Below the pieces are notes generated by a model. It made no database searches. It saw only the letters and a list, made by a program, of their open reading frames with translations, and had not been told where the DNA came from. Shown in pieces: positions 1 through 46,200 of a DNA stretch of 64,000 nt; positions within the stretch are counted from its first letter, which is position 1; each line of letters opens with the position of its first letter. The DNA comes from an uncultured Hyphomicrobiales bacterium. Lineage in GTDB: Bacteria; Bacteroidota; Ignavibacteria; Kapaibacteriales; UBA7675. The DNA is taken from NCBI GenBank assembly GCA_964445695.1, contig CAYULF010000010.1, forward strand, positions 57,821 to 121,820, written 5' to 3'. The translations under genes were made by a program, and so were the position numbers.

Positions 1-1239
1 AACCAGGCGATAGAACCGGCGCACGTCCTCAGCGTGCTGCTGGACGACAAGGGCGGCATCATTGCACCGATGCTGATGAAGCTGGGCGTGAATGTAGACA
101 ACCTGAAAAGCGGCATCGACGCCGAAATCGAAAAACTGCCGAAGGTGAGCGGCGCGGCGCTGGGCAACCAGTTTGTGTCGTCGGACATGGCCAAGGTGCT
201 GGACATCGCGCTGGCCGAAGCGCAGTCGCTCAAAGACGAATACGTCAGCACCGAGCACCTGCTGATCGCGCTGGCGGAGCAGCGCAGCGACACGGGACGC
301 ATGCTGAAGGCGCAGGGCGTGACCAAAGAAACGATCATGCGCATTCTGAAGGACTTCCGCGGTTCGCGGCGCGTGACGGATCAGAATCCGGAAGACAAAT
401 ACCAGGCGCTCAAGAAGTACGGCCGCGTGCTGAACGACGAGGTGCGCAAGGGCAAGGTCGACCCGATTATCGGCCGCGAGGACGAGATACGGCGCGTGCT
501 GCAGGTGCTGGCGCGCCGCACCAAAAACAACCCGGTGCTCATCGGCGAGCCCGGCGTGGGTAAAACGGCGATAGCGGAAGGCATCGCCCAGCGCATCGTT
601 GAGGGCGACGTTCCCGACTCGCTCAAGTCCAAGCAGATCGTTGCGCTGGACATGGCGTCGCTGGTGGCGGGCGCTCAGTTCCGCGGTCAGTTTGAGGAGC
701 GTCTCAAAGCCGTGGTGGAGGAAGTCACCGAGTCCAACGGCGAAATCATTCTGTTTATCGACGAGCTGCACACGCTGGTGGGCGCGGGCGCTACGAGCGG
801 CAGTATGGACGCTGCGAACATTCTCAAACCCGCGCTGGCGCGCGGCGAACTGCGCACGATTGGTGCGACGACGCTGGACGAGTACCACAAGTACATCGAA
901 AAAGACGCCGCGCTGGAGCGTCGTTTCCAGCGCGTCCTGATCGAGGAGCCGTCGGTTGAGGACGCAATTTCTATCCTGCGCGGCCTGCGCGAGAAGTACG
1001 AGGTACACCACGGCGTGCGGATTACGGACGCGGCGTTGGTGGCGGCGGCACAGCTTTCGGACAGGTACATCACGGACCGCTTTCTGCCGGACAAAGCTAT
1101 CGACCTTGTGGACGAGGCGGCGAGCAAGCTGCGCATCGAGATCGACTCGATGCCGGAGGAGCTGGACTCGCTGGAGCGTCGCATCCGCACGCTGGAGATC
1201 GAGAAGCAGGCTTTGTTAAGGGAGTTGGGGGAGTCGTAG
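1..1239 (+). CDS. clpB: ClpB-type AAA+ disaggregase, N-terminal half only (N-domain, NBD1 and start of the middle domain); 5' end lies outside the window and the 3' end is an in-frame stop with no continuation
   Basis: Frame-1 translation from nt 1 reads [19 protein letters not shown] and continues through Walker [14 protein letters not shown], Walker B ILFIDELH and the sensor region, ending [15 protein letters not shown] at about 445 aa of an expected ~860. None of the three downstream frames continues a ClpB-like sequence. Confidence 0.8.
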
Positions 1240-2400: not shown

Positions 2401-3154
2401 GCCGGTTTCTCCGCATGGCGGCGGCGGCGCAGAATCTCGAAGAACATGACCCCGGCGGCCACGGAGGCGTTCAGCGAGGAGATTTTACCTGCCATCGGAA
2501 CGCGCACCTGCACGTCGCACATCTTCAGGATCGGCGCGCTGATGCCCGCTCCCTCGCTGCCGATGACAATCACCTGCGGACCGTCGTAGTCGACCGCGTC
2601 GTAGTCTTCCGCACCGGCGTCGGCGCAGCCGACAATGCGGAAATCGGCATTGCGGCAGTCGATCAGCGCCTTTTCCAGCGGTCCCACCTTTGCCACGGGC
2701 AGGTGCTCAAACGCGCCGGCGGCCGTCTTGAGCGCCACATTGGTGATCGGCGCGCCGCCGCGCTCCGGAATAATCAGCCCGTGAATGCCGGCGCACTCGG
2801 CCGAGCGCGCGATTGCTCCCAGGTTGTGCGGATCGCTGATGCCGTCCAGGGCGGCCAGCACGGGATTGTCGCTGCGCTCGTAGGCCAGGTCGATCAGCTC
2901 GACCAGGCTGCGACGCGGCACCGGACTCACCAGAGCGATGACGCCCTGGGCGGCGTGCATGCCCGCCTTCAGTTCGCGTTCCATTGCGCCGAACTTGCGC
3001 GTGTCGGCTATGACGCAGGCGACGGAGCGCCTTTGCGCCTCGCTGCGGATCTGGGCCGTGCCGCTGTCTTCCGCGCCATGGCGGATAAATATCTTCTCAA
3101 TCTCGCGGTCGCCGCGCAGGGCTTCCAGGACTGGATTGCGTCCAAAAATGTACA
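2397..3154 (-). CDS. rlmB: 23S rRNA (guanosine-2'-O)-methyltransferase, SpoU/TrmH family (RlmB-like)
   Basis: Translation MYIFGRNPVLEAL...NLGAIARSAECAGIHGLII...VIGSEGAGIS...SLNASVAAGVMFFE shows the SpoU-substrate-binding domain and SPOUT motifs. Start placed at the MYIFG ATG (3152-3154) rather than the upstream ORF start. Confidence 0.8.
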
Positions 3155-3376
3155 TAGGGACTCTGCTGTTGGAATCAAGGGAATGCAGTTGCTGTGTCGT
3201 CGAATGGCCGGATTTATTTTTTGATACGCCCTCCGCAGCCCCGTGAACATTCTTCACATGGCGCGTAAATTTTCCTGAACATTTTAATATCTTTGCGGTT
3301 CTCGTCGAGCTACGGCCCGACATCGGCGACGCCGGCCGACCTGCCGTCGTTCATTCCCCGAGTGAGCAATTTACGC

Positions 3377-4096
3377 ATGTACAAAGTCGAACTGCCCAAT
3401 TTTGAAGGCCCGCTCGACCTGCTTCTCTTTTTCATCAAGCGGGACGAACTGGACATCTACGACATTCCGATAGCGCGCATTACCAGCGAGTTTCTGGACT
3501 ATGTGCGCCTGATGGAATTGCTCGATCTGGAGTTGGCGGGCGAGTTCCTCGTGATGGCGTCGATGCTCATGCAGATCAAGGTGCGCATGCTGCTGCCGCG
3601 TGAGGAACGCGGCGAAAACGAGGAGGCCGAAGAAGAAGATCCGCGCTCCGAACTGGTGCGCCGCCTGCTCGAATACAAACGCTACAAGGAAAGCGCCGAA
3701 CAACTGGCGCAGCGCGCCGAAGTCGAACGCTACGCCTACTACCGCCAGTTCTTCAAAGCCGATGCGGTGAGTGCGGACGACGAGGAAGACCTGCTCAGCA
3801 ATGTGACGCTGTTTGATCTGATTGCGGCTTTCAAGCGCGCTATGGAACGCGCGCCGCGTGAAGCGCCCAAACACCGGATCGAGTTTGAGCCGGTCACGAT
3901 TGAAGAGCAGGCCGACTTTATCATGGGTGAACTGCAGGAAAAAAAGCAGATTTCTTTCTTTACCGCGACGAACGCGCTGCACATCGGCGCCGTAATCGTC
4001 ACGTTTCTGGCTATCCTCGAACTGATGCGGGCGGGCAGACTGGCCATACGACAAAGCGCCGCGTTCGAGGACATTCTGCTGTACCGTCCGGATTGA
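3377..4096 (+). CDS. scpA: Segregation and condensation protein A (kleisin)
   Basis: MYKVELPNFEGPLDLLLFFIKRDELDIYDIPIARITSEFLDYV... is the typical ScpA N-terminus. Divergent from rlmB and followed by scpB. Confidence 0.85.
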   Translation: MYKVELPNFEGPLDLLLFFIKRDELDIYDIPIARITSEFLDYVRLMELLDLELAGEFLVMASMLMQIKVRMLLPREERGENEEAEEEDPRSELVRRLLEYKRYKESAEQLAQRAEVERYAYYRQFFKADAVSADDEEDLLSNVTLFDLIAAFKRAMERAPREAPKHRIEFEPVTIEEQADFIMGELQEKKQISFFTATNALHIGAVIVTFLAILELMRAGRLAIRQSAAFEDILLYRPD

Positions 4097-4112
4097 TCCG
4101 GCGCAGCTTCCA

Positions 4113-6002
4113 TTGCCGACAGTCATTATGCAAAAACTCGTCAGCCCTTTTCTCGACCTGGAACGCGAAGACCAACGTCTCGCTCTCGAAGCAATCATCT
4201 TTGCTTCTGATGAACCCCTGTCTACCGCCGCGCTGTACCGGTTACTCGTTGAGCCCGACGCCGACGTGCGCGCAATCGAGGAAGAAGACGCGCTCGAAAA
4301 TATAGAACCCAACAGTCAGGTCATCGATCCGGAAACCGCTGCCGACGAGTCCACCGCCGAAGAATCGGACCAGGAATCAGGCGAAGAATCGGACGAAGAA
4401 TCAGTCGAAGAATCTGGTGAAGAATCGGACGCCGAATCAGACAATGAATCGGACGAAGAATCAGACGAAGAATCTGGTGAAGAAACGGACGATGAATCAG
4501 GCGAAGAACCGGCCGATGAAATGGACAGTGAAGCAGACGACGAGACAGATGGCGAATCAGATGATGAAGCGGACGACGAAGACGAGGACAGCGACGCGGA
4601 AAGCTCCGAGCCTGACGCTGCAAGCGAAGTAGAGCCAGAGGCTGACGCCACTCAGCAGGCAGACACCGACGCTGCTAAAAGCGAGGACAAAAAAGCCGTT
4701 CAGGCACGCCACATCGAAGGCGATCCGGCCGGCGTGCTGACAAAACTGCGCGAACAGCAGGATACCCTAAAAAAATTGCACCGTGAAAAACGGCGTGAAA
4801 TCCGCAGTCTGTTCGATGAACTGATCGAGGAAATCAACGCCGATCTGGACGAGACCGGACGGCCTTTCCACGTCGTGCGCATCGCAGGTGGCTACCAGTT
4901 CGCCACGCGCCCCGAACACGGTGAAATGATCGTGCGCCTGCAAGGCTCGCGTACCCGCCGTCGCCTCTCGCGCGCAGCGGTCGAATCGCTGGCAATCATT
5001 GCCTATCGCCAGCCGCTGTCCAAGTCCGATGTCGAGGCGATCCGCGGCGTCAACTCCGGCGAGGTCATCAAAAAGCTGATGGAAAAAGGGCTCGTCTCCA
5101 TCGTCGGTCGCTCCGACAGCGTCGGCAAACCGCTGCTTTATGGTACGACCCGCGAGTTCCTTAAAACCTTTGGTTTGCACGACCTGACCGACCTGCCGCG
5201 TCCGCGCGAGCTCAAGGAAATCCTGCGCGACAGCCAGGAAGAAATGAGCCAGTATCAAACGATCATCATCGATGAGGACGACAACATCGAAGTCATCGAA
5301 GAGCGCATTCAGTCGATCACCGGCGAGTCGCCGCTCGTTGAAGGCAAGTATATTTCTCAGCGCGACGGCGATTCCGATGACGATGAAGAGACGGACGACT
5401 CCGAAGAGGAAATCCGTGACGCCGATTCCGACGATGAAGATGCCGACCTTGATTCCGCGGACGGTGATGAAAATACCGACGCCGACGACGCCGACGACGC
5501 CGACGATGATGAATCAGATGACGACGACGACGATGATGACGACGATGACGACGATGACGACGATGATGAATCAGATGACGACGATGATGACGACGATGAC
5601 GACGATGATGACGACGATGACGACGATGATGAATCAGATGACGACGATGAATCAGATGACGATGACGACGATGATGATGACGAATCAGATGACGATGAGC
5701 AGTTTGACGACCTGGCGTCCGGTGATGAGTTTTACGCCGATGGGAGCGGCGACGGGGAAGATCTGAGCGACGAAGATCCCGACTACGAGCAATTCGACGA
5801 CGAGCCCGCGGATGAAAACGCGGAGGATCACAACAACAATACTGACGGCGATCGTGGACGCGACGCCGACAACCGCACGACTAACAAGAATTCGGAAACC
5901 GCCACCGAAGGTGCGGAATCAAGGAAGCCGAAGTTTGCCAGGCAGGGCGGCGAGCAGGACCAAAATGCGCCCGAAATCCGGTTTATGAAGCGCCGCGGCT
6001 GA
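4113..6002 (+). CDS. scpB: Segregation and condensation protein B carrying a ~180-aa poly-acidic insertion and a ~250-aa poly-Asp C-terminal tail (629 aa versus a typical ~200 aa)
   Basis: Conserved ScpB blocks LALEAIIFASDEPLS and HVVRIAGGYQFATRPEHGEMIVRL...LSRAAVESLAIIAYRQPLSKSDVEAIRGV are present. Between and after them lie ESDEESGEESDEE repeats and DDDDDDDDDDDDDDDDESDDDD runs, encoded by 15-21-bp DNA tandem repeats. Confidence 0.8.
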   Translation: MPTVIMQKLVSPFLDLEREDQRLALEAIIFASDEPLSTAALYRLLVEPDADVRAIEEEDALENIEPNSQVIDPETAADESTAEESDQESGEESDEESVEESGEESDAESDNESDEESDEESGEETDDESGEEPADEMDSEADDETDGESDDEADDEDEDSDAESSEPDAASEVEPEADATQQADTDAAKSEDKKAVQARHIEGDPAGVLTKLREQQDTLKKLHREKRREIRSLFDELIEEINADLDETGRPFHVVRIAGGYQFATRPEHGEMIVRLQGSRTRRRLSRAAVESLAIIAYRQPLSKSDVEAIRGVNSGEVIKKLMEKGLVSIVGRSDSVGKPLLYGTTREFLKTFGLHDLTDLPRPRELKEILRDSQEEMSQYQTIIIDEDDNIEVIEERIQSITGESPLVEGKYISQRDGDSDDDEETDDSEEEIRDADSDDEDADLDSADGDENTDADDADDADDDESDDDDDDDDDDDDDDDDDESDDDDDDDDDDDDDDDDDDDESDDDDESDDDDDDDDDESDDDEQFDDLASGDEFYADGSGDGEDLSDEDPDYEQFDDEPADENAEDHNNNTDGDRGRDADNRTTNKNSETATEGAESRKPKFARQGGEQDQNAPEIRFMKRRG

Positions 6003-6011
6003 GCGCCGGGG

Positions 6012-6524
6012 TCAGGAAAGCCCGAACAGTTTTTTGTATTCGTCAATCTCCTTTTGACTGACTTTGCGCGGTTTTTCGCCGGCGTCCTCCATCGCGCCGC
6101 GCAGCGAATTCGCCGCCTTTTTTACCGTTTTTTTATTGCCCTTGGCCAGCCGCGCCAGGAATTGCTCCGCCCGCAGCGTCTCGCATTCAAAGCGCCGCGC
6201 AAACGCCGCCACCTCGTGATCATTGGAAACGACAATCCACTCACCGGCCATTCTGGAGCCGCGAACGATCTTTTTTATCACGGCATCGGCATTTTGATTG
6301 ACGCGTGTTCCACGCACAAAAATCACGTCGTCAATCGTGCGGGATTTGACGTCGCGCCCGTCAAAAACCAGTGTACAGCGGACATCGCGGCGGGCCAGGG
6401 CATAGGATTTGGCGCGTTCGATCAGCAGCTCGCGCGCATCGTTGAGGGACTGGCGCAGCAGTTGCTCCCAGTCGGGATTGGCGTGCAGGACGTTGTGGGC
6501 ATCGACGAGGTAGTTGGTCATGGT
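6012..6524 (-). CDS. NYN/PIN-domain RNA-binding nuclease, YacP (Rae1)-like
   Basis: MTNYLVDAHNVLH...TLVFDGRD...DDVIFVRGT...ADAVIKKIV matches the YacP-like NYN domain. Start chosen at MTNYL (6524); the upstream Arg-rich extension looks non-coding. Confidence 0.6.
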   Translation of the reverse strand, partial: TMTNYLVDAHNVLHANPDWEQLLRQSLNDARELLIERAKSYALARRDVRCTLVFDGRDVKSRTIDDVIFVRGTRVNQNADAVIKKIVRGSRMAGEWIVVSNDHEVAAFARRFECETLRAEQFLARLAKGNKKTVKKAANSLRGAMEDAGEKPRKVSQKEIDEYKKLFGLS

Positions 6525-6879
6525 GCATTCACTCCGGTGCATTGTGCGGCGTGGGGACGGGCTTTTTTCGGGCTCTTTCCAGCAAAGGCCATTTTGCTTT
6601 TCACCGATGTAGAAACGTCGGGAATTCAAGCTGTGCCGGGCCTTCGAGCTGAAATTCAGAGGTCGGCCAGGGAGTCCCTGCGCACATGAATAATTGCGGC
6701 AAGGGACGTTTTCATGCGGAAGATTCGTATTTTAGATGTTTGCCGCTTTTGCCGGACGGGTCCCCGCATGAACATTGGGAACGCGCCGGCCTGAAAAAAT
6801 TTGCGGAACCTGCGCCCGGTATGTCGACGATATGGTGCAGGAGCCCAATAGTTTTGGAACGTAAAGGACAAGAAGACGC

Positions 6880-38273: not shown

Positions 38274-40271
38274 GTGAGAGGAAATATGCTGGAAAGTTTA
38301 GGGCTTGTAGGCATAGTTGCGACTGCACTGTTTGTCTTTGGTATTGCCGTGTTCATCGTCAAGATGTACCGAAAGGTTGAACAGGGGAAAGCGTTAGTAA
38401 GAACCGGCTTGGGCGGAGTTAAAGTTGCATTTAATGGAATCATGGTTGTTCCCGCCATTCACAGAATGGAGCTGATGGACATCTCTGTTAAACGCATTGA
38501 AATCTCGCGCCTCGGCAAAGCCGGCCTTGTGTGTAAAGACAACATTCGTGCTGACATTAAGGTCGCTTTTTTTGTGCGGGTCAATCAGACAGTCGAGTCT
38601 GTTAGTCAGGTGGCCGGTTCGCTCGGCTGTGAACGCGCATCTTTGCAGGACGCATTGGTCGAACTCTTTGACGCCAAGTTCTCCGAAGCGCTTAAAACAG
38701 TCGGTAAGAAGTTTAACTTCGAAGAACTCTACGAAGCGCGCGTTGAATTCAAACGTGAAATGCTTGAAGTAATCGGCAGAGACCTCAACGGTTACGTTCT
38801 GGAAGATGCGGCGATCGATTACCTCGAACAGACGCCTTTAATGGAGCTTTCGCCCGACAACATTCTGGATGCGGACGGTATCAAGAAGATCACCGATCGC
38901 ACCGCCGCCGAAAACATGTTGACGAACAATATTCGGCGTGAAGAAGAAAAAGTCATCAAGAAACAGGACGTCGAAGCGCGCGAAGCCATCCTGCAGATGG
39001 AGCGTCAACTGGCCGAAACCGAACAGCGCCAGCAAAAGGAAATTGCCGCGATTACCGCGCGTGAACAGTCCGAAGCGCACCAGGTCGAGTATCAGGAAAT
39101 GTTAAAAGCCGAACAGGCCCGCATCCGCACGGAAGAAGAAGTGCGCGTCGCAGAACAAAACCGCGACCGCCAGGTGATTGTCGCCGAGCGCGCCAAACAA
39201 CGCACCGACGCCGTCGAGTCCGAACGCGTCGAAAAAGATCGCCTGCTCGAAAAAACCGAGAAGGAAAAGATCGTCAGCCTGGCCGAAATCGAAAAACAAC
39301 GCGCCGTTGAAGAAGAGCGCAAAAACATTCAGGAAGTCATCCGCCAGCGCGTGATGGTAGAAAAAGCCGTGGTCGAGGAAGAAGAGCGCATCAAAGACAC
39401 GCGCGCCAAAGCCGCTGCCGACCGCGAAAAACTCGTGGCCGTCACCAAAGCGCAGGAAGTCGCCGAAGAAGCCAAAATCAGCGAAGTCGTCGCCGCCGAA
39501 GCCGCGCGTGAAGCCGCGCGACTGAACGCCGAACGCAAAGTCATCGACGCGGACGCCGACAGAACAACCGCCGAAAAACGCGCCGAAGCGATGAAAACCA
39601 TTGCCGACGCCCGCGCCGAAGAAGAAGCCGTGCTCGGCCTCTCCGAGGTTCGCGTGATGGAAGCGCGCGCGCTGGCAATCGAAAAAGAAGGCGGCGCCGA
39701 GGCGCGCGTCATCGAACTCAAAGCCGGTTCGGAAGCCAAAGGTATACGCGAGAAAGCCGAAGCCATGAAGGAATTCGACGGCGTCGGTCGCGAACACGAA
39801 GAGTTTAAACTGCGCCTCAACAAAGAAAAAGAGGTCGAACTGGCCGGCATCAATATTAACAAAGACATCGCCCTGGCGCAGGCCGAAATCATCCGCGATG
39901 CGCTCAGCTCCGCCAAGATCGACATCATCGGCGGTGAAACGATGTTCTTTGAAAACATCGTCAACGCCGTATCACGCGGCAAAGCGCTCGACCGCATGGT
40001 CGACAACAGCAGCGTGCTGCAGGATCTGCGCAAAGGCATTCTGGGCGAGGGCGGCGGCAACATCGCCTCCGGAATCCGCGGCATCATGGATCGCCTGGGC
40101 GTCAACTGGGAAGATGTTAAAAACATCAGCGTTTCCGCTCTGCTGACGCAGTTGATGACGCGCGCCGACAGCGACACACACGCCATGCTCAGCGACTGGT
40201 TTAACACCGTCAAGGGTACGCCGCTGGCCGACCAGCAGGTCTCCAGCGTCATGTCGCGGCTGCGCTCCTGA
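38274..40271 (+). CDS. yqiK: Flotillin-family protein (YqiK/FloT-like: TM, SPFH domain, long EA-rich coiled coil, conserved C-terminal domain)
   Basis: 665 aa with the SPFH core, a ~250-aa charged heptad region (AEQ...REEE...) and a flotillin C-terminal block GGETMFFENIVNAVSRG. Confidence 0.85.
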   Translation: MRGNMLESLGLVGIVATALFVFGIAVFIVKMYRKVEQGKALVRTGLGGVKVAFNGIMVVPAIHRMELMDISVKRIEISRLGKAGLVCKDNIRADIKVAFFVRVNQTVESVSQVAGSLGCERASLQDALVELFDAKFSEALKTVGKKFNFEELYEARVEFKREMLEVIGRDLNGYVLEDAAIDYLEQTPLMELSPDNILDADGIKKITDRTAAENMLTNNIRREEEKVIKKQDVEAREAILQMERQLAETEQRQQKEIAAITAREQSEAHQVEYQEMLKAEQARIRTEEEVRVAEQNRDRQVIVAERAKQRTDAVESERVEKDRLLEKTEKEKIVSLAEIEKQRAVEEERKNIQEVIRQRVMVEKAVVEEEERIKDTRAKAAADREKLVAVTKAQEVAEEAKISEVVAAEAAREAARLNAERKVIDADADRTTAEKRAEAMKTIADARAEEEAVLGLSEVRVMEARALAIEKEGGAEARVIELKAGSEAKGIREKAEAMKEFDGVGREHEEFKLRLNKEKEVELAGININKDIALAQAEIIRDALSSAKIDIIGGETMFFENIVNAVSRGKALDRMVDNSSVLQDLRKGILGEGGGNIASGIRGIMDRLGVNWEDVKNISVSALLTQLMTRADSDTHAMLSDWFNTVKGTPLADQQVSSVMSRLRS

Positions 40272-40385: not shown

Positions 40386-43300
40386 ATGGCGGATACGGAA
40401 ATACAACAGGAACAGGCAAAATCGAGTGCGGAAAAAGAGGCGGGATCAAATCGTCTTGACGAAGGCGCTTACGGCCTGATACGCGGGCGCATGCGGGCCG
40501 CCGCCGGCGAACTGCTGCGGGATCTGGATCACCTTAACAAAGAGCGCCGCGCCGTCTATGGCGCAGTCTCAACCGAACTGCTCGGCAGCGAACGCATCAG
40601 CACGATAAACAACTGCGTTCCGCGCGACATGACGCCGATCGGTTCGCGTTTTCTCTTCGGCTACAACGTACATATCGGCCTGCGCTCGGAGACGCGGCTG
40701 GAAGACGTCTTTGCCATGTACGAGTGGCGCGACGGTCATCTGGTGAGTTCAACGCTCGACAGCATCGACGACCCGCAGTTTAAACGCGAATTCGCCGAAC
40801 TGTACAAATACTACAAAAACACGGCCTTTGCCAAGTTTGCGCGTCGCGGCGTCTACCTCTACATGAAGTTTCGCATCGGCTCCAGCGTCGACGACTTCAA
40901 GGCGTTTAAGTGGCAGATCAACGACGACGGCACGTTGACCTATATCAATAACCGCGGCGACCTGGAGTTGCACTATCCGCCGCAACATGAATTTGAGTGG
41001 AAAAGGCTCGGACGCGACGCACAGCGAACTGCCGGCACTGACTACCTCTCGGTCAGCGAGAAGCTGTTTATCTCGATCGAAAATGCGGTGTTAACGTTCC
41101 GCGTTGAGGACAATACCGAGCAAGGCGCTACAATTGCCGGCGAGCCGGTGGCCGAAGCCGAGCAAAAGCTGGACGACATGTCCATTGAATTTGCCGAGCT
41201 CGAGCATTTGATAATTCTGCGAATCCGGCCTTATCGCGAAGAGAAACTGCGCTACTTCGTGTTCAACGGCAAGACGCAGGAACTTAAACGCGTGGACGGC
41301 CTGGCGGAGGCGGCTATCCTGTTGCCGGAGAACCACGGGCTGATTTTTCCGCGCGGCAGTTACTTAAACGACGGCACATTGCAGGAGCTGGACACGCGCC
41401 AGGCGGACATGTTGTTCGAGCGTCGTTATCCCGCGCCTAACGGCGAGGATTTCCTCTTTGTGTTTTACAACCGCGCCGACGGCGTCTACGTGCTTCTGCA
41501 GTACAATCTGATCGAGCAGGTGCTGGCGCCGCCCCTGGTCTGCAACGGGTTTTCAATTTTCGACGACGGGCGTCTGCTGTGTTTTCGCGTTGAAGAACTG
41601 GCACAGAAACACCACATGGTTCAGATCTGGCGCACGCCGTTCATGGTGGACATGCCGGTCGCAACAGAACAAAGCGATTCGCCACTGCTGAAAATCGGCA
41701 ACCGCGAAATCGTGCGCTGCATGGCAGAGTGTCACGAACTCTACGGCCTGACGCAGAAAGAAGAAATCTACGCCGATCTTTACCTCGACATCACGCGCAA
41801 AGGCGGAGACATACGCGACGCCTATTTCTGGCTGGAGCAGGTTGAAGCCGGCGCGATTATTAAACACATCGACGGAATCCGCTCCGCTGCCGAAGCCGCG
41901 ATCGACGAATACGACAAACTGCGCGCGGTCAAGGCCGACACAAGCCAGAAGTTTAACGAGTTCCGCAGCGAGGTGGAGGAATTTTTAACGACTTCGGCGG
42001 CGCAGCGCCCGGGGTCGATCGAAGAGTTTGTAGCCGCGCTGGCTCAGGTGCGCGCTCTGCGTGGGCGGGCCGCCGCCGTGGCGGAGTTGCCGCACTGCGA
42101 CGTCGAAGCCGTTGAACAACTGGACGCCGCCATCCGCGCACATGGCGAGGAACTGGCGCACGGCTGTGTTGAGTTTCTGCTGCGCGACGACGCGTTGGAC
42201 GGTTATCGCGCGCGCATCGAAGTGCTGGACGGTGAAACTGCACAGGCGCGGAAAGCTGCGGACCTGATCGAACCGCTGGCGTCGCTGGACCAGCTCTCGA
42301 CCGACCTCGAAATGTTAATCGACGTGGTTGTCAACCTGGACATCGAAGACAGCACGCAGAGCACGCGGATTGTAGAATCGATTTCCGCGCAGTTCACCGA
42401 CATCAACCGCGTGCGTGCGGGCATGCGCTCGCGGCGTTCGGATCTGGCGCGCGGCGAAGGCGAAGCCGAGTTCCGCGCGCAGCTGAATCTTATACAGCAG
42501 AGTCTGTTAAACTACCTGGAACTGGCCGATACGCCCGTCCGTTGCGACGAATTCACCACCAAGCTGCTGATCCAGATCGAAGAACTCGAAGCGCGCTTTG
42601 CCGACTTTGACGGTTTCCTGGATGAACTGGGTCTTAAACGCGACGACGTTTACAACGCTTTTGAACAGAAAAAAGTCGCGCTGACGGAAAAGTTAAACAA
42701 ACGCGCGCTGGCCTTGACGCGTTCGGCCGAGCGCATTCTGGGCGGCATCCGCGAACGCCTGTCCCGCTTCGGCAAAGCCGATGAAATTTTCGCCTGGTTT
42801 TCGACCGATCAGATGGTCGCCAAGGTACGCGACATCTCGCAGTCCCTGCGCGAGGAACTGGGCGACAGCACCCGCGCCGACGATCTCTGGACGCGTTTAA
42901 ACACATTGCGCGAAGATGCTCTGCGCAATCTCAAGGACGCCGATGAACTCTTCGTCGATGGTCCCGACCGCGTAAAATTCGGCCGCCAGATTTTTTCCGT
43001 TGTCAACGACAAACCGCATCTCAGCCTGGTTGTTCGCGATGACGAAGACTATTTTCACGTCGGCGGCACGCAGTACTTTCTACCCGTGCACGACGAGGAG
43101 TTAAACGCTCTGCGCGACGTCCGCGATCAGGAGATCGCCTTTGAGAACAACCATGTCTACCGTGCCGAGTACCTGGCTTTTGAAATCTGGGACGGCTACG
43201 GTGCGCCCGGGCTGCTTGAGGCGGTCGACGGCCGGGCTCTGGACGAGGCGTCGCTTTCATTTGTGCAGCACCACCTTAACAAGAAACCCTCGGATGCGTA

Positions 43301-45353
43301 CGTCAAGGGCGTGCACGACCACGATGCCGCCAAGATTCTGGCCGCCCTGTTAACCATTGAGTCGCAGGCGGGGCTGCTGGCCTGGCGCGACGCCGACCGC
43401 GCTTTGGCCTGGTGTTATCATGTGGACCGCGGCCGGGACGAATCATTGCAATCGCTCAACGAACAGATTGAAGCGATGCGCGTTGTGCGGACGCTCTACG
43501 AACTGCCGTACGAGTCCAGATATGTTGTGGACCGCCTGGAGCGCGAAATCGCGCGTTACTGCGACGACAGCGATTTTGCTCTCGACGCCGACACACACGC
43601 TGCGGCGGAATATCTGTTTAATGTTTTGACGCGCAATCAGGCGCGTGAAGGCGTCGAAGGTTTTGTGTTGAACGCGCGCGCGCGCGACATGGCCGCTGCG
43701 TTCCGCGAAGCGATGCGCGTCAGTCCCAAACCGCGCGCCTTTGAAGAATCGCTTCAGGGCCGCGAGTCCGCCGCGCTGCGTCTGCGCATCGCGCTGATCT
43801 GGTTGAATGCCCGTCGTGAAGGTCCGAACTCGGCGGCGAATGCCGTTGACGCGGCGCTTTTGTTAAGTGTGCCGGAAGGAATGGAATCGGCGTTCACCTT
43901 CGGCGAGCTGGAAACACGGGTAACCGTTGACGGTCTGCACGGCCGGCACGTGCGCGTGGAAAAGGGCGCGCTGCAACTGGATTATCACGGTTTTTTAACA
44001 TGCGTTGGCCGGTTTGCAACAAATGCAGCGCTGCGTTTTCAACAGTTGCAGGCGCGCAAACAGCATCTGCTGGAAGAGCACCGCCGTGTACTGCGTCTCG
44101 AAAAACTGCAGCCCGGCGTGCCGTCCTACTTTGTGCGTAACCGATTGCTGACGCGCGTCTACCTGCCGATGATCGGCGAAAACTTTGCACGTCAGATCGG
44201 AACCTCCGGGCGCGACACGCGCAGCGACCGCAGCGGCTTGCTGTTGTTAATCTCGCCGCCGGGCTACGGCAAAACGAGTTTGATCGAATACGTCGCCAAA
44301 CGCCTCGGCATGCTCTACGTCAAGGTCGACGGGCCGGCGCTGGGACACGACGTGACCTCGCTCGATCCGGCGACCGCGCCTAACTCCGCCGCGCGCTCCG
44401 AATTGATGAAGTTAAACCAGGCTTTTGCCCTGGGCGACAACGTCATGTTGTACATAGATGACATTCAACACTGCAACCCGGAGTTCCTGCAGAAGTTTAT
44501 TCCGCTCTGCGACGCACAGCGCCGCATAGAAGGCGTGTTTAACGGGGAGGCGCACAGCTTTGACCTGCGCGGTCGGCGTTTTGCCGTGGTTATGGCCGGC
44601 AATCCCTACACGGAAAGCGGCTCGGCATTTGTGATCCCCGACATGCTGGCCAACCGCGCCGACGTGTTTAACCTGGGCGACATCTCCACGGCCGAGCAGG
44701 AAGCCTTTGAGCTCTCCTTTGTTGAAAACTGTTTAACCTCCAATGCCACGACGCGGCGCATGGCATTGACGCATCGCGAGGACGTGCCTGCCTTTGTGCG
44801 CTGGGCGCGCAGCAAGTCGCGCGAAGGCCTCGAGTTCAAAGGCTCGTATTCATCCGCCGAGATGCAGGACATCGTGAATGTGATCGGCAAACTGATGCGC
44901 GTGCGCGATACCGTCCTGGCCGTCAACAACGCCTACATCCGCTCGGCGGCAACGGCCGAAGCCTACCGCACCGAGCCGCCTTTTCAGTTGCAGGGTTCCT
45001 ATCGCGACATGAATAAAATCGCCGCCAACGTGCTGGCCGCGATGACCGAGGAAGAGCTGGATAAACTCGTTGAAAATCACTACGTCAACGAAGCGCAGAC
45101 ATTGGCGGGCGACAGCGAAGCCAATCTGTTGAAATGGCGCGAAATTGTCGGCGTCATGACGGAACCTGAACGCAAGCGCTACGAAGATATCAAACGCCGC
45201 TTCGGCGACAATCAATTGTTCGGCGGAGCGGGCGACGGCGATCCGCTGCAGGAAACAATCAGGCAGATTAAACAACTCAATTCCGGCGTGCACGCCATCG
45301 CCCGTGCAATCAGCAATCACGCCGGCAACAAGGGCGGAAGTTTAAATGAGTGA
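40386..45353 (+). CDS. Giant (1655-aa) multidomain ATPase: N-terminal domain of unknown function, long alpha-helical middle region, C-terminal AAA-type P-loop domain (DUF3686-like, sometimes annotated as a DNA-repair ATPase)
   Basis: Walker A LLLLISPPGYGKTSLIEY (nt ~44238-44290), Walker B VMLYIDDIQH (nt ~44447), arginine-rich sensor region FAVVMAGNPYTESG. Family assignment is from memory and should be verified. Confidence 0.6.
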   Translation: MADTEIQQEQAKSSAEKEAGSNRLDEGAYGLIRGRMRAAAGELLRDLDHLNKERRAVYGAVSTELLGSERISTINNCVPRDMTPIGSRFLFGYNVHIGLRSETRLEDVFAMYEWRDGHLVSSTLDSIDDPQFKREFAELYKYYKNTAFAKFARRGVYLYMKFRIGSSVDDFKAFKWQINDDGTLTYINNRGDLELHYPPQHEFEWKRLGRDAQRTAGTDYLSVSEKLFISIENAVLTFRVEDNTEQGATIAGEPVAEAEQKLDDMSIEFAELEHLIILRIRPYREEKLRYFVFNGKTQELKRVDGLAEAAILLPENHGLIFPRGSYLNDGTLQELDTRQADMLFERRYPAPNGEDFLFVFYNRADGVYVLLQYNLIEQVLAPPLVCNGFSIFDDGRLLCFRVEELAQKHHMVQIWRTPFMVDMPVATEQSDSPLLKIGNREIVRCMAECHELYGLTQKEEIYADLYLDITRKGGDIRDAYFWLEQVEAGAIIKHIDGIRSAAEAAIDEYDKLRAVKADTSQKFNEFRSEVEEFLTTSAAQRPGSIEEFVAALAQVRALRGRAAAVAELPHCDVEAVEQLDAAIRAHGEELAHGCVEFLLRDDALDGYRARIEVLDGETAQARKAADLIEPLASLDQLSTDLEMLIDVVVNLDIEDSTQSTRIVESISAQFTDINRVRAGMRSRRSDLARGEGEAEFRAQLNLIQQSLLNYLELADTPVRCDEFTTKLLIQIEELEARFADFDGFLDELGLKRDDVYNAFEQKKVALTEKLNKRALALTRSAERILGGIRERLSRFGKADEIFAWFSTDQMVAKVRDISQSLREELGDSTRADDLWTRLNTLREDALRNLKDADELFVDGPDRVKFGRQIFSVVNDKPHLSLVVRDDEDYFHVGGTQYFLPVHDEELNALRDVRDQEIAFENNHVYRAEYLAFEIWDGYGAPGLLEAVDGRALDEASLSFVQHHLNKKPSDAYVKGVHDHDAAKILAALLTIESQAGLLAWRDADRALAWCYHVDRGRDESLQSLNEQIEAMRVVRTLYELPYESRYVVDRLEREIARYCDDSDFALDADTHAAAEYLFNVLTRNQAREGVEGFVLNARARDMAAAFREAMRVSPKPRAFEESLQGRESAALRLRIALIWLNARREGPNSAANAVDAALLLSVPEGMESAFTFGELETRVTVDGLHGRHVRVEKGALQLDYHGFLTCVGRFATNAALRFQQLQARKQHLLEEHRRVLRLEKLQPGVPSYFVRNRLLTRVYLPMIGENFARQIGTSGRDTRSDRSGLLLLISPPGYGKTSLIEYVAKRLGMLYVKVDGPALGHDVTSLDPATAPNSAARSELMKLNQAFALGDNVMLYIDDIQHCNPEFLQKFIPLCDAQRRIEGVFNGEAHSFDLRGRRFAVVMAGNPYTESGSAFVIPDMLANRADVFNLGDISTAEQEAFELSFVENCLTSNATTRRMALTHREDVPAFVRWARSKSREGLEFKGSYSSAEMQDIVNVIGKLMRVRDTVLAVNNAYIRSAATAEAYRTEPPFQLQGSYRDMNKIAANVLAAMTEEELDKLVENHYVNEAQTLAGDSEANLLKWREIVGVMTEPERKRYEDIKRRFGDNQLFGGAGDGDPLQETIRQIKQLNSGVHAIARAISNHAGNKGGSLNE

Positions 45354-46200
45354 TTTCAATCCCGTTGTTCGCGAACTGCATGTGTATCCGCTCAAATCGG
45401 CCGGCGGAATTGCAGTTGATCGCGCCGCGGTCGATATGCGCGGTCTGGAATTCGATCGGCGCTGGATGTTGGTCGACGCGGAGGGAATGTTTATCTCGCA
45501 GCGCGAATACGCGCGCATGGCGTTGTTAAACATGCGCCCGGCCGACGGCGGATTTGTGATTGAAGCGCCGTCCATGCCACCGCTGTTTATAGCCCACGAC
45601 CTGCCGATGAGCGACCGCCGTATGGTGCAGGTCTGGAGCAGCCGCCTGCGGGCCTGGACATATCCGGCCGCGGTGGACGAGTGGTTCACGCAGTTCCTCG
45701 GTGTCGAATGTCATTTAACTGCAATGCCGGACGACGGCAAACGCATCGCCAATCCGCGCAACACGCGCTCGATTACTCCGATTCGTTTTGTCGACGGTTA
45801 TCCGATTTTGCTGCTCTCGGACGCCTCGCTGGCCGATCTGAACAGTCGGCTTGCCACGCCTCTGCCTCACGACCGCTTTCGCGCAAACATGATCATTTCC
45901 GGCTGCGAGGCGTTTGCTGAAGACGGCTGGGACCGCTTTTCCATCGGCGACGTCGAGTTTGAAACCATCAAGCCATGCCCGCGCTGCGTCGTGACGACGA
46001 TCGATCAGCGCAATGCGCAGAAATCGGACGAGCCGCTGCGCACGCTGGCGTCCTACCGCAATCGCGGCGGCGCGGTGGAATTCGGTATGTACGCGCGGGC
46101 GCTCAACGCGGGGACCATAAACTGCGGGGCTGAAATTCTGCTTACATTGCGTCGGTCGGAAGCGGACAGCCAGGATCAAGATTCCCGGCCGACTACGTGA
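45346..46200 (+). CDS. MOSC-domain protein (YcbX/YiiM-like MoCo-sulfurase C-terminal beta-barrel)
   Basis: MOSC N-terminal beta-barrel plus core VDGYPILLLSDASLADLNSRL...RFRANMIISG...ETIKPCPRCVVTTIDQ. Start overlaps the giant ATPase stop by 8 nt. Confidence 0.75.
   Translation: MSDFNPVVRELHVYPLKSAGGIAVDRAAVDMRGLEFDRRWMLVDAEGMFISQREYARMALLNMRPADGGFVIEAPSMPPLFIAHDLPMSDRRMVQVWSSRLRAWTYPAAVDEWFTQFLGVECHLTAMPDDGKRIANPRNTRSITPIRFVDGYPILLLSDASLADLNSRLATPLPHDRFRANMIISGCEAFAEDGWDRFSIGDVEFETIKPCPRCVVTTIDQRNAQKSDEPLRTLASYRNRGGAVEFGMYARALNAGTINCGAEILLTLRRSEADSQDQDSRPTT

Follow-up and report, generated by a model that had tools for sequence, protein, structure and literature searches.

The scpB gene at 4113–6002 (+) of the 64,000-nucleotide (nt) stretch of DNA analysed here (the window: contig CAYULF010000010.1 of assembly GCA_964445695.1, positions 57,821 to 121,820, from an uncultured bacterium placed by GTDB in the Kapaibacteriales) encodes a condensin subunit that is interrupted and extended by two strongly acidic regions. 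We are almost certain that this is a real and intact gene, with the identity and architecture set out below. Judged by its sequence and by a structural model, the product is a genuine kite subunit ScpB of the bacterial Smc-ScpAB condensin, which would dimerise and bind ScpA. We suggest that it joins a core preserved by selection to two polyanions that were expanded in frame and would act electrostatically, and we put the probability of this explanation as a whole at about 55%. Within it, the selected electrostatic role of the polyanions is itself a tentative proposal made by analogy: charge-based modulation of DNA or partner engagement is the option we favour, with tolerated neutral expansion as a close rival.

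The features on which the argument draws are listed in window coordinates. ScpB residues are counted from the TTG start at 4113, confidence values are predicted local distance difference test scores (pLDDT) of an AlphaFold2 model built from 58 sequences, and L001 and P0123 are two of the relatives discussed below.

4113–6002 (+): scpB open reading frame (ORF), a single open frame of 629 codons plus stop, TTG start
4113–4280 (+): N-terminal part of winged-helix domain 1, helices 1 and 2 (residues 18–45) plus a short extra helix; pLDDT 94–97, 100% identical in L001
4281–4712 (+): acidic disordered insertion in the helix 2-helix 3 loop of winged-helix domain 1 (residues 57–200); Glu/Asp/Ser-rich, pLDDT <50
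4358–4580 (+): degenerate tandem repeat array under the insertion; periods of 12, 24 and 60 nt at 69–84% match
4725–4805 (+): basic helical extension before helix 3 (residues 205–231, PAGVLTKLREQQDTLKKLHREKRREIR, also given as KLREQQDTLKKLHREKRREIR), net +5
4806–5216 (+): conserved core, helix 3 and wing of winged-helix domain 1 and the entire winged-helix domain 2 (residues 232–368); Pfam, TIGR00281, PDB and Foldseek matches
5202–5318 (+): two post-core helices (residues 364–402), semi-conserved in the clade; moderate pLDDT, identical in L001, alignable to P0123
5361–5846 (+): polyacidic disordered C-terminal tail (residues 417–578), 162 amino acids (aa), net -108, pLDDT <50
5517–5567 (+): poly-Asp run of 17, by composition
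5574–5630 (+): poly-Asp run of 19, by composition
5655–5681 (+): poly-Asp run of 9, by composition
5847–5999 (+): non-repetitive C-terminal end (residues 579–629), net +3, alignable in frame with L001
3293–4096 (+): scpA, the kleisin subunit; Pfam SMC_ScpA 2.3e-39, NCBIfam ScpA models up to 215 bits

Identity and architecture of the ScpB

The sequence-only reading, a model's note made from the letters of this DNA, had described the conserved ScpB winged-helix blocks as intact and the protein as about three times the normal length, and both statements were borne out. The Pfam SMC_ScpB family (PF04079) is matched at 3.1e-46 (157.3 bits against a cut-off of 27.4), with residues 219–363 covering profile positions 19–159/160, and the curated TIGR00281 equivalog model is passed at 97.4 bits (cut-off 89.2). 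The first 18 Pfam positions, left unmatched, correspond to residues 18–44, which align to residues 5–31 of the Chlorobium structure 1T6S, while residues 232–354 align to 1T6S residues 39–161. It follows from these flanking alignments that ~187 residues of the window protein stand in place of a loop of ~7, and thus that the insertion splits the helix-turn-helix of the first domain. The AlphaFold2 model shows the order helix-helix-[loop]-helix-strand-strand followed by helix-helix-helix-strand-strand, that is, two winged-helix domains with a core pLDDT of 75–98; the ten best Foldseek matches in the PDB are all ScpB (E 2e-12 to 5e-7), and a PDB sequence search returned the ScpB structures 1T6S, 3W6J, 4I98 and 2Z99 as the best solved relatives. 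The core is about neutral (net +3). The whole protein consists of 38% Asp and Glu, has a net charge of about -180 and is ~3.3 times as long as the 186-position ScpB model. Its nearest ScpBs are labelled Kapabacteria or Ignavibacteria (FCB group).

An in-frame ATG at 4128 (MQKLVSPFLDL...) offers an alternative scpB start, which would give 624 aa and is a better fit to the N-termini of homologues. The stop of scpA lies 16 nt upstream of the TTG on the same strand, an arrangement also present in L001 and in a further genome, L002; the likely true scpA start is the ATG at 3377 (MYKVELPNFEGP...), the L002 homologue starting with MYKLKLPNFEGP. Neither a second ScpB-like sequence nor an smc gene was found in the window, nor any tRNA or Rfam family, and a scan of 3100–6800 for promoters and terminators gave counts indistinguishable from those in shuffled sequence. 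Off-frame and opposite-strand ORFs over the repeats (e.g. 4316–4651, minus, and 5272–5766, plus) were set aside as echoes, rich in Ser or in Thr and Met, of the codons that make up the acidic repeats.

Both acidic regions are polyanionic, as had been claimed, and are predicted to be disordered. The first had been placed, as a ~180-aa Glu/Asp/Ser repeat, after the first winged helix-turn-helix; its acidic nature holds, its position is corrected to the inside of winged-helix domain 1, between helices 2 and 3. Residues 57–200 (144 aa) hold 69 Asp or Glu against 4 Lys or Arg, net -65. The last ~30 aa of the inserted sequence are not acidic repeat: residues 205–231 are confidently predicted to form a basic helix, continuous with helix 3 (pLDDT 85–98) and near-identical in L001. 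A Lys/Arg-rich patch directly before helix 3 is also seen in the related ScpBs P0001, P0059, P0061, P0079, P0082–84, P0119 and P0123, which are those with larger acidic loops.

The C-terminal extension amounts to ~260 aa, close to the ~250 aa first given, and its acidic tail is real, with run lengths of 17, 19 and 9 Asp replacing the earlier 17–20. Asp makes up 6.3% of the residues in 26 other window ORFs, which puts the chance of a run of 19 at ~1e-23 per position. A high density of negative charge in disordered segments, as expected of DNA-mimic or autoinhibitory tails, is found twice in this protein, in the insertion (net -65, 144 aa) and in the tail (net -108, 162 aa), with pLDDT <50 in each. 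The protein closes with the basic tip EIRFMKRRG (5973–5999), whose motif EIR(F/K)M(K/R) is common to the window ScpB, L001 and P0123 (core 52% identical) only. A MinD/FtsA-type membrane-targeting helix was considered for this tip and rejected, as its hydrophobic moment (muH) of 0.43 hardly differs from the average of 0.41 for shuffled tips, 43% of which score at least as high, and the AlphaFold2 model has no helix there.

The DNA beneath the tail is repetitive as well, with periods of 9, 21 and 30 nt at 74–83% match and mixed Asp codons (GAC:GAT 52:42). Its repeats are degenerate: no perfect triplet run exceeds (GAC)4 in the window or (GAC)8 in L001, and the longest perfect tandem tract measures 59 nt with a period of 21. 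The suggestion that a short-period tandem repeat makes the length hypervariable therefore stands as regards the repeats and a fast change of length between close species, and fails as regards a slippage-prone pure repeat. A phase-variable contingency locus was rejected, there being no long perfect short-unit tract (the maximum is (GAC)4) and all units being multiples of 3.

Turnover of sequence and retention of charge among relatives

Scanning a single genome for each GTDB species yielded one close relative, L001 (JAUIKM010000023.1, metagenome-assembled genome Co_bin.359, contig coverage ~3.9x), and two distant ones; a scan of metagenome contigs added one distant match only (L004, 46% identity). 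The flanking DNA of L001 is 90–94% identical to the window, which marks it as a different population that was assembled independently. It encodes an ScpB of 686 aa in a single open ORF with the same layout. The first 68 residues are identical in the two proteins, with 9 synonymous and no non-synonymous codon changes, and residues 198–418 differ by 53 synonymous against 3 non-synonymous changes; the corresponding figures for ScpA are 33 and 2. We conclude from these codon counts that the ScpB core is under strong purifying selection.

The acidic regions behave differently from the core. In the alignment with L001 the insertion measures 129 aa in the window and 148 aa in the relative, the variable tail 160 and 197 aa, and all differences are in frame, as is the alignment of the C-terminal 50 residues beyond the variable tail. 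Two 34-aa (102-nt) units make up the L001 insertion, unrelated to the 8- and 20-aa ESDEESGE-type units of the window, so that a different acidic sequence of another length occupies the same site. Where disordered pieces can be aligned, non-synonymous to synonymous changes stand at 16:11, 19:8 and 8:4, close to the ratio of unconstrained sequence, and the net charges of these pieces are -26 and -22, -9 and -9, and -6 and -5 in the window and L001, respectively. Overall the insertion carries -61 and -52 and the tail -108 and -136. The comparison indicates that the sequence and length of the acidic regions turn over fast while their negative charge is retained. The proposal to compare repeat length across strains was taken up here between close species, where the length evolves fast through in-frame insertions and deletions at 90–94% nucleotide identity.

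The same two sites were then followed in 254 related ScpBs, drawn from the 120 best 90%-cluster matches and the 150 best 50%-cluster representatives; the exhaustive profile search behind this sample comprised 13,870 ScpBs at E ≤1e-10. The helix 2-helix 3 linker has a median length of 38 aa (range 9–436) and a median net charge of -6 (down to -108), the post-core tail a median length of 96.5 aa (range 24–744) and a median net charge of -18.5 (down to -232), and the total charge of the protein has a median of -28 (down to -269). Both sites are almost always acidic, and the alignment with related ScpBs that had been called for accordingly places acidic sequence at the same two positions across the sample. 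In the ranking by charge an 840-aa protein comes first (-269), L001 second (-196) and the window protein third (-180), with about a dozen others between -90 and -155. The longest Asp run elsewhere in the sample is 6, against 19 in the window and 11 in L001. The earlier statement that such polyanionic extensions are unusual on a condensin subunit is therefore right for their degree and for the Asp homopolymers only, since an acidic linker and tail are the rule among related ScpBs. Our literature searches found no paper on acidic or disordered ScpB extensions, nor on an amphipathic helix in ScpB. As read from these alignments, acidic extension is a widespread feature of FCB-group ScpBs that seems to have gone undescribed, and the window ScpB is an extreme case of it, marked by poly-Asp.

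Some relatives show further features of their C-termini. P0224 and P0267, members of one 90% cluster in another ScpB lineage, are 95% identical, one having an acidic repeat unit of 19 aa more than the other; P0267 ends in ~45 aa of poly-Arg, as a frameshift in GA-rich acidic codons would give. In the window tail, frequent GAT codons would put TGA stops in the corresponding Arg-coding frame. In 25 of 269 related ScpBs (P0205–P0263) the last 17 residues form a conserved peptide that is basic and amphipathic, W..WK.KI..F..KLF(G), and comes after long acidic or Pro-rich tails; its muH is 0.51 against 0.27 for shuffles, of which 5% reach that value. Two ScpBs of 900 aa end in other basic amphipathic helices, and P0230, P0250 and P0252 were noted alongside the motif set. 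The peptide resembles membrane-targeting helices of the MinD/FtsA type. The motif is absent from the window ScpB.

A possible electrostatic role and its rivals

The sequence-only reading had offered two functional ideas, modulation of SMC-DNA engagement and a counter-ion reservoir, both of which are conjecture. The mechanism we have in mind begins with two solvent-exposed, permissive sites, the loop between helices 2 and 3 and the C-terminus, both of which would have grown by in-frame duplication of acidic codon blocks. We infer that both are exposed, away from the surfaces at which ScpB meets ScpA or its dimer partner. Together the polyanions carry about -170 charges per protomer and hence about -340 per ScpB dimer on ScpA. 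Placed beside the kleisin compartment, they would repel DNA from the kite-kleisin module, and they could compete with DNA for basic surfaces, be it those of the Smc heads, the protein's own helix before helix 3 or its basic C-terminal end, and occupy these surfaces until displaced. Such electrostatic competition would tune the timing of Smc-ScpAB engagement with DNA. A basic element comes after each of the polyanions (residues 205–231 and 579–629), an order that fits intramolecular competition and does not demonstrate it.

Background and precedent for such a role come from the literature. Two ScpBs bind the middle of ScpA, and ScpB is needed for the chromosomal recruitment of Smc (PMC7055376); ScpB also sterically regulates the binding of ScpA-N to the Smc neck, its own DNA binding being unclear (PMC7055376). 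In E. coli GyrA a disordered acidic tail controls DNA wrapping (PMC11626157), and Asp/Glu-rich domains have been proposed to act as DNA mimics (PMC6294567, PMC10987829).

The strongest competing explanation is a runaway expansion of low-complexity sequence, tolerated at permissive sites and near-neutral, in which acidic residues are kept as harmless beside DNA, basic or hydrophobic ones would be purged, and the polyanions serve no specific role. We regard it as a serious possibility, short of being probable. It would account for the near-neutral ratios of non-synonymous to synonymous changes in the alignable disordered parts, for the complete turnover of repeat units between genomes 90–94% identical, for the very wide range of lengths among relatives, short ones included, and for a repeat copy number that differs within the 95%-identical pair P0224 and P0267. 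It is less easily reconciled with a net charge per region that is kept within ~20% in two genomes with different units, or with the near-universal acidity of both sites over the 254 relatives. Nor is anything alike found in ~26 other sampled window genes, which argues against a broad inclination of this organism to acquire acidic tracts.

Several further points weigh against an electrostatic function and have to be set beside our preference for it. The disordered regions are nearly unconstrained in sequence and the C-terminal end is weakly constrained (4 synonymous against 7 non-synonymous changes in the last 50 codons relative to L001). Many relatives have linkers of 20–40 aa and tails of ~40 aa, so ScpB function does not require large polyanions. 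Retention of charge could stem simply from the growth of acidic seeds combined with selection against basic or hydrophobic low-complexity sequence. Runs of Asp and Glu can destabilise E. coli ribosomes and abort translation (bioRxiv 10.1101/2021.02.02.429294), internal sites usually being shielded by bulky residues and by the nascent chain that already occupies the tunnel (bioRxiv 10.1101/2021.02.02.429294). Here small acidic residues would take up the tunnel during the poly-Asp runs; efficient read-through is therefore not guaranteed, and full-length output may be inefficient. Exact repeat and run lengths are also provisional, coming as they do from short-read metagenome assemblies, with L001 at ~3.9x.

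A bolder version of the electrostatic explanation would make the polyanions a clade-wide, selected regulatory device of FCB condensins, that is, a DNA competitor or spacer with adjacent basic peptides that gates DNA entry or anchors Smc-ScpAB to the membrane or another partner, with a MinD-like helix in other lineages and the most extreme poly-Asp form here. We consider it unlikely. Still less probable, in our view, is that the self-repelling tail of the window protein serves as a charged spacer, holding the basic C-terminal peptide EIRFMKRRG away from the core for a partner, DNA or the membrane. A net-positive, non-repetitive end does follow the acidic tail and is in frame in L001, the tip motif recurs in P0123, and the 25 of 269 ScpBs mentioned above place their W..WK.KI..F..KLF(G) peptide after long tails. 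However, the window tip does not exceed its shuffled versions in amphipathicity and has no predicted helix, its motif is confined to three sequences, and the last 50 codons changed with 7 non-synonymous against 4 synonymous substitutions.

An assembly artefact or pseudogene, with mis-assembled repeats or a non-coding frameshift, had been named as what would undo the observation, and we find it very improbable. Low-complexity regions in metagenome assemblies invite the suspicion, as do the ~3.9x coverage of L001, the absence of the exact protein, with either start, from a 15-billion-protein collection (exact look-up) and the frameshift-like switch from acidic sequence to poly-Arg in the related P0267. 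Against this, the ORF is uninterrupted in two independent assemblies that differ at 6–10% of flanking bases, with every length change in frame; a non-coding or frameshifted repeat would not have stayed in frame in both lineages through ~500 nt rich in indels. The N-terminal helices and the core share a frame on both sides of the insertion, the degenerate repeats give unique k-mers (longest perfect tandem tract 59 nt), and hundreds of relatives have the same architecture.

Proteins of halophiles typically carry highly acidic insertions, and Lys is low (3.5%) in the sampled ORFs, but acidification of a salt-in proteome, or a cation-buffering role, is hardly credible here given a near-neutral ScpB core (net +3) and 26 other ORFs with 13.4% Asp and Glu against 10.8% Lys and Arg and without acidic tracts. 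Salt-in acidification was rejected on the same figures, which pertain to these 64 kb only. No other ORF of at least 80 aa, in any frame of the 64 kb, reaches 15 Asp or Glu in 30 aa; acidity is specific to ScpB among the window ORFs, and the search for other chromosomal proteins with similar tails, carried out within the window, came back empty.

Known systems and neighbouring sequences

Canonical ScpBs are the closest point of reference (1T6S from Chlorobium tepidum, 3W6J from Geobacillus, 4I98 from S. pneumoniae and 2Z99 from M. tuberculosis). The window protein shares with them the tandem winged-helix core, 42–43% identical to 1T6S and 3W6J, and a gene directly 3' of scpA. It departs from them in length (629 aa against 160–220 aa), in the ~187 residues that replace ~7, in the C-terminal extension of ~260 aa and in a net charge of about -180. 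Other long acidic ScpBs, from further metagenomic lineages of the FCB group, are expanded at the same two, sometimes three, sites into disordered and often repetitive acidic sequence (P0218, 840 aa, net -269; P0161, 730 aa with a 436-aa acidic loop; P0169, P0170, P0153 and P0217). Their regions are of mixed Asp, Glu, Ala, Pro, Thr and Ser with Asp runs of at most 6, in contrast to the Asp homopolymers of 17 and 19 in the window.

The core of the window protein also aligns to positions 233–364 of the NCBIfam profile NF001106 ("ScpB, long form"), a curated entry by which over-length ScpBs are already recognised. Membership of that family was rejected: the cut-off is 300 bits, the window protein scores 84.6, and no match extends into the first 232 positions of the profile, so that the window ScpB is a different long form. 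The nine long ScpBs tested, L001 included, all pass TIGR00281, and none reaches the NCBIfam long-form cut-off. The C-terminal acidic tail of GyrA, the HMGB1 tail and Asp/Glu-rich DNA mimics have in common with the window regions a disordered polyanion on a DNA-handling protein. There is no homology to tails of the GyrA and HMGB1 type, which are of ~20–35 residues, as against 145 and 160 residues in the window.

ScpBs form a natural series from about -10 to about -270 net charge with the differences at the same two sites, a ready set of variants for the effect of charge around the kleisin-kite compartment. The homopolymers of 17 and 19 Asp likewise put the ability of bacteria to translate acidic runs to a hard test. 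Should the regions be no more than tolerated, they are a curiosity about the growth of low-complexity sequence at permissive sites.

Two other loci in the window deserve mention. At its edge, an ORF at 34–1239 (+) encodes a ClpB-type ATPase (Clp_N, AAA, AAA_lid_9) that stops inside the presumed start of the coiled-coil middle domain, and no second ClpB ATPase half follows it. The next ~1.15 kb (1240–2396) are without long ORFs and contain three 31-nt tandem units (1331–1423) and two 285-nt direct repeats (1420–1704 and 1835–2119) that are 93% identical. The end of this ORF could mean that the gene is truncated, that the region was rearranged or that two pieces were joined in assembly. Further downstream, an ORF of 1655 aa at 40386–45353 (+) matches DUF3686 ("ATPase involved in DNA repair", 4e-157), DUF7902 and, weakly, AAA. 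It is flanked by two unannotated ORFs, at 38274–40271 (665 aa, no Pfam match) and 45346–46200, with which it may form a large uncharacterised ATPase system.

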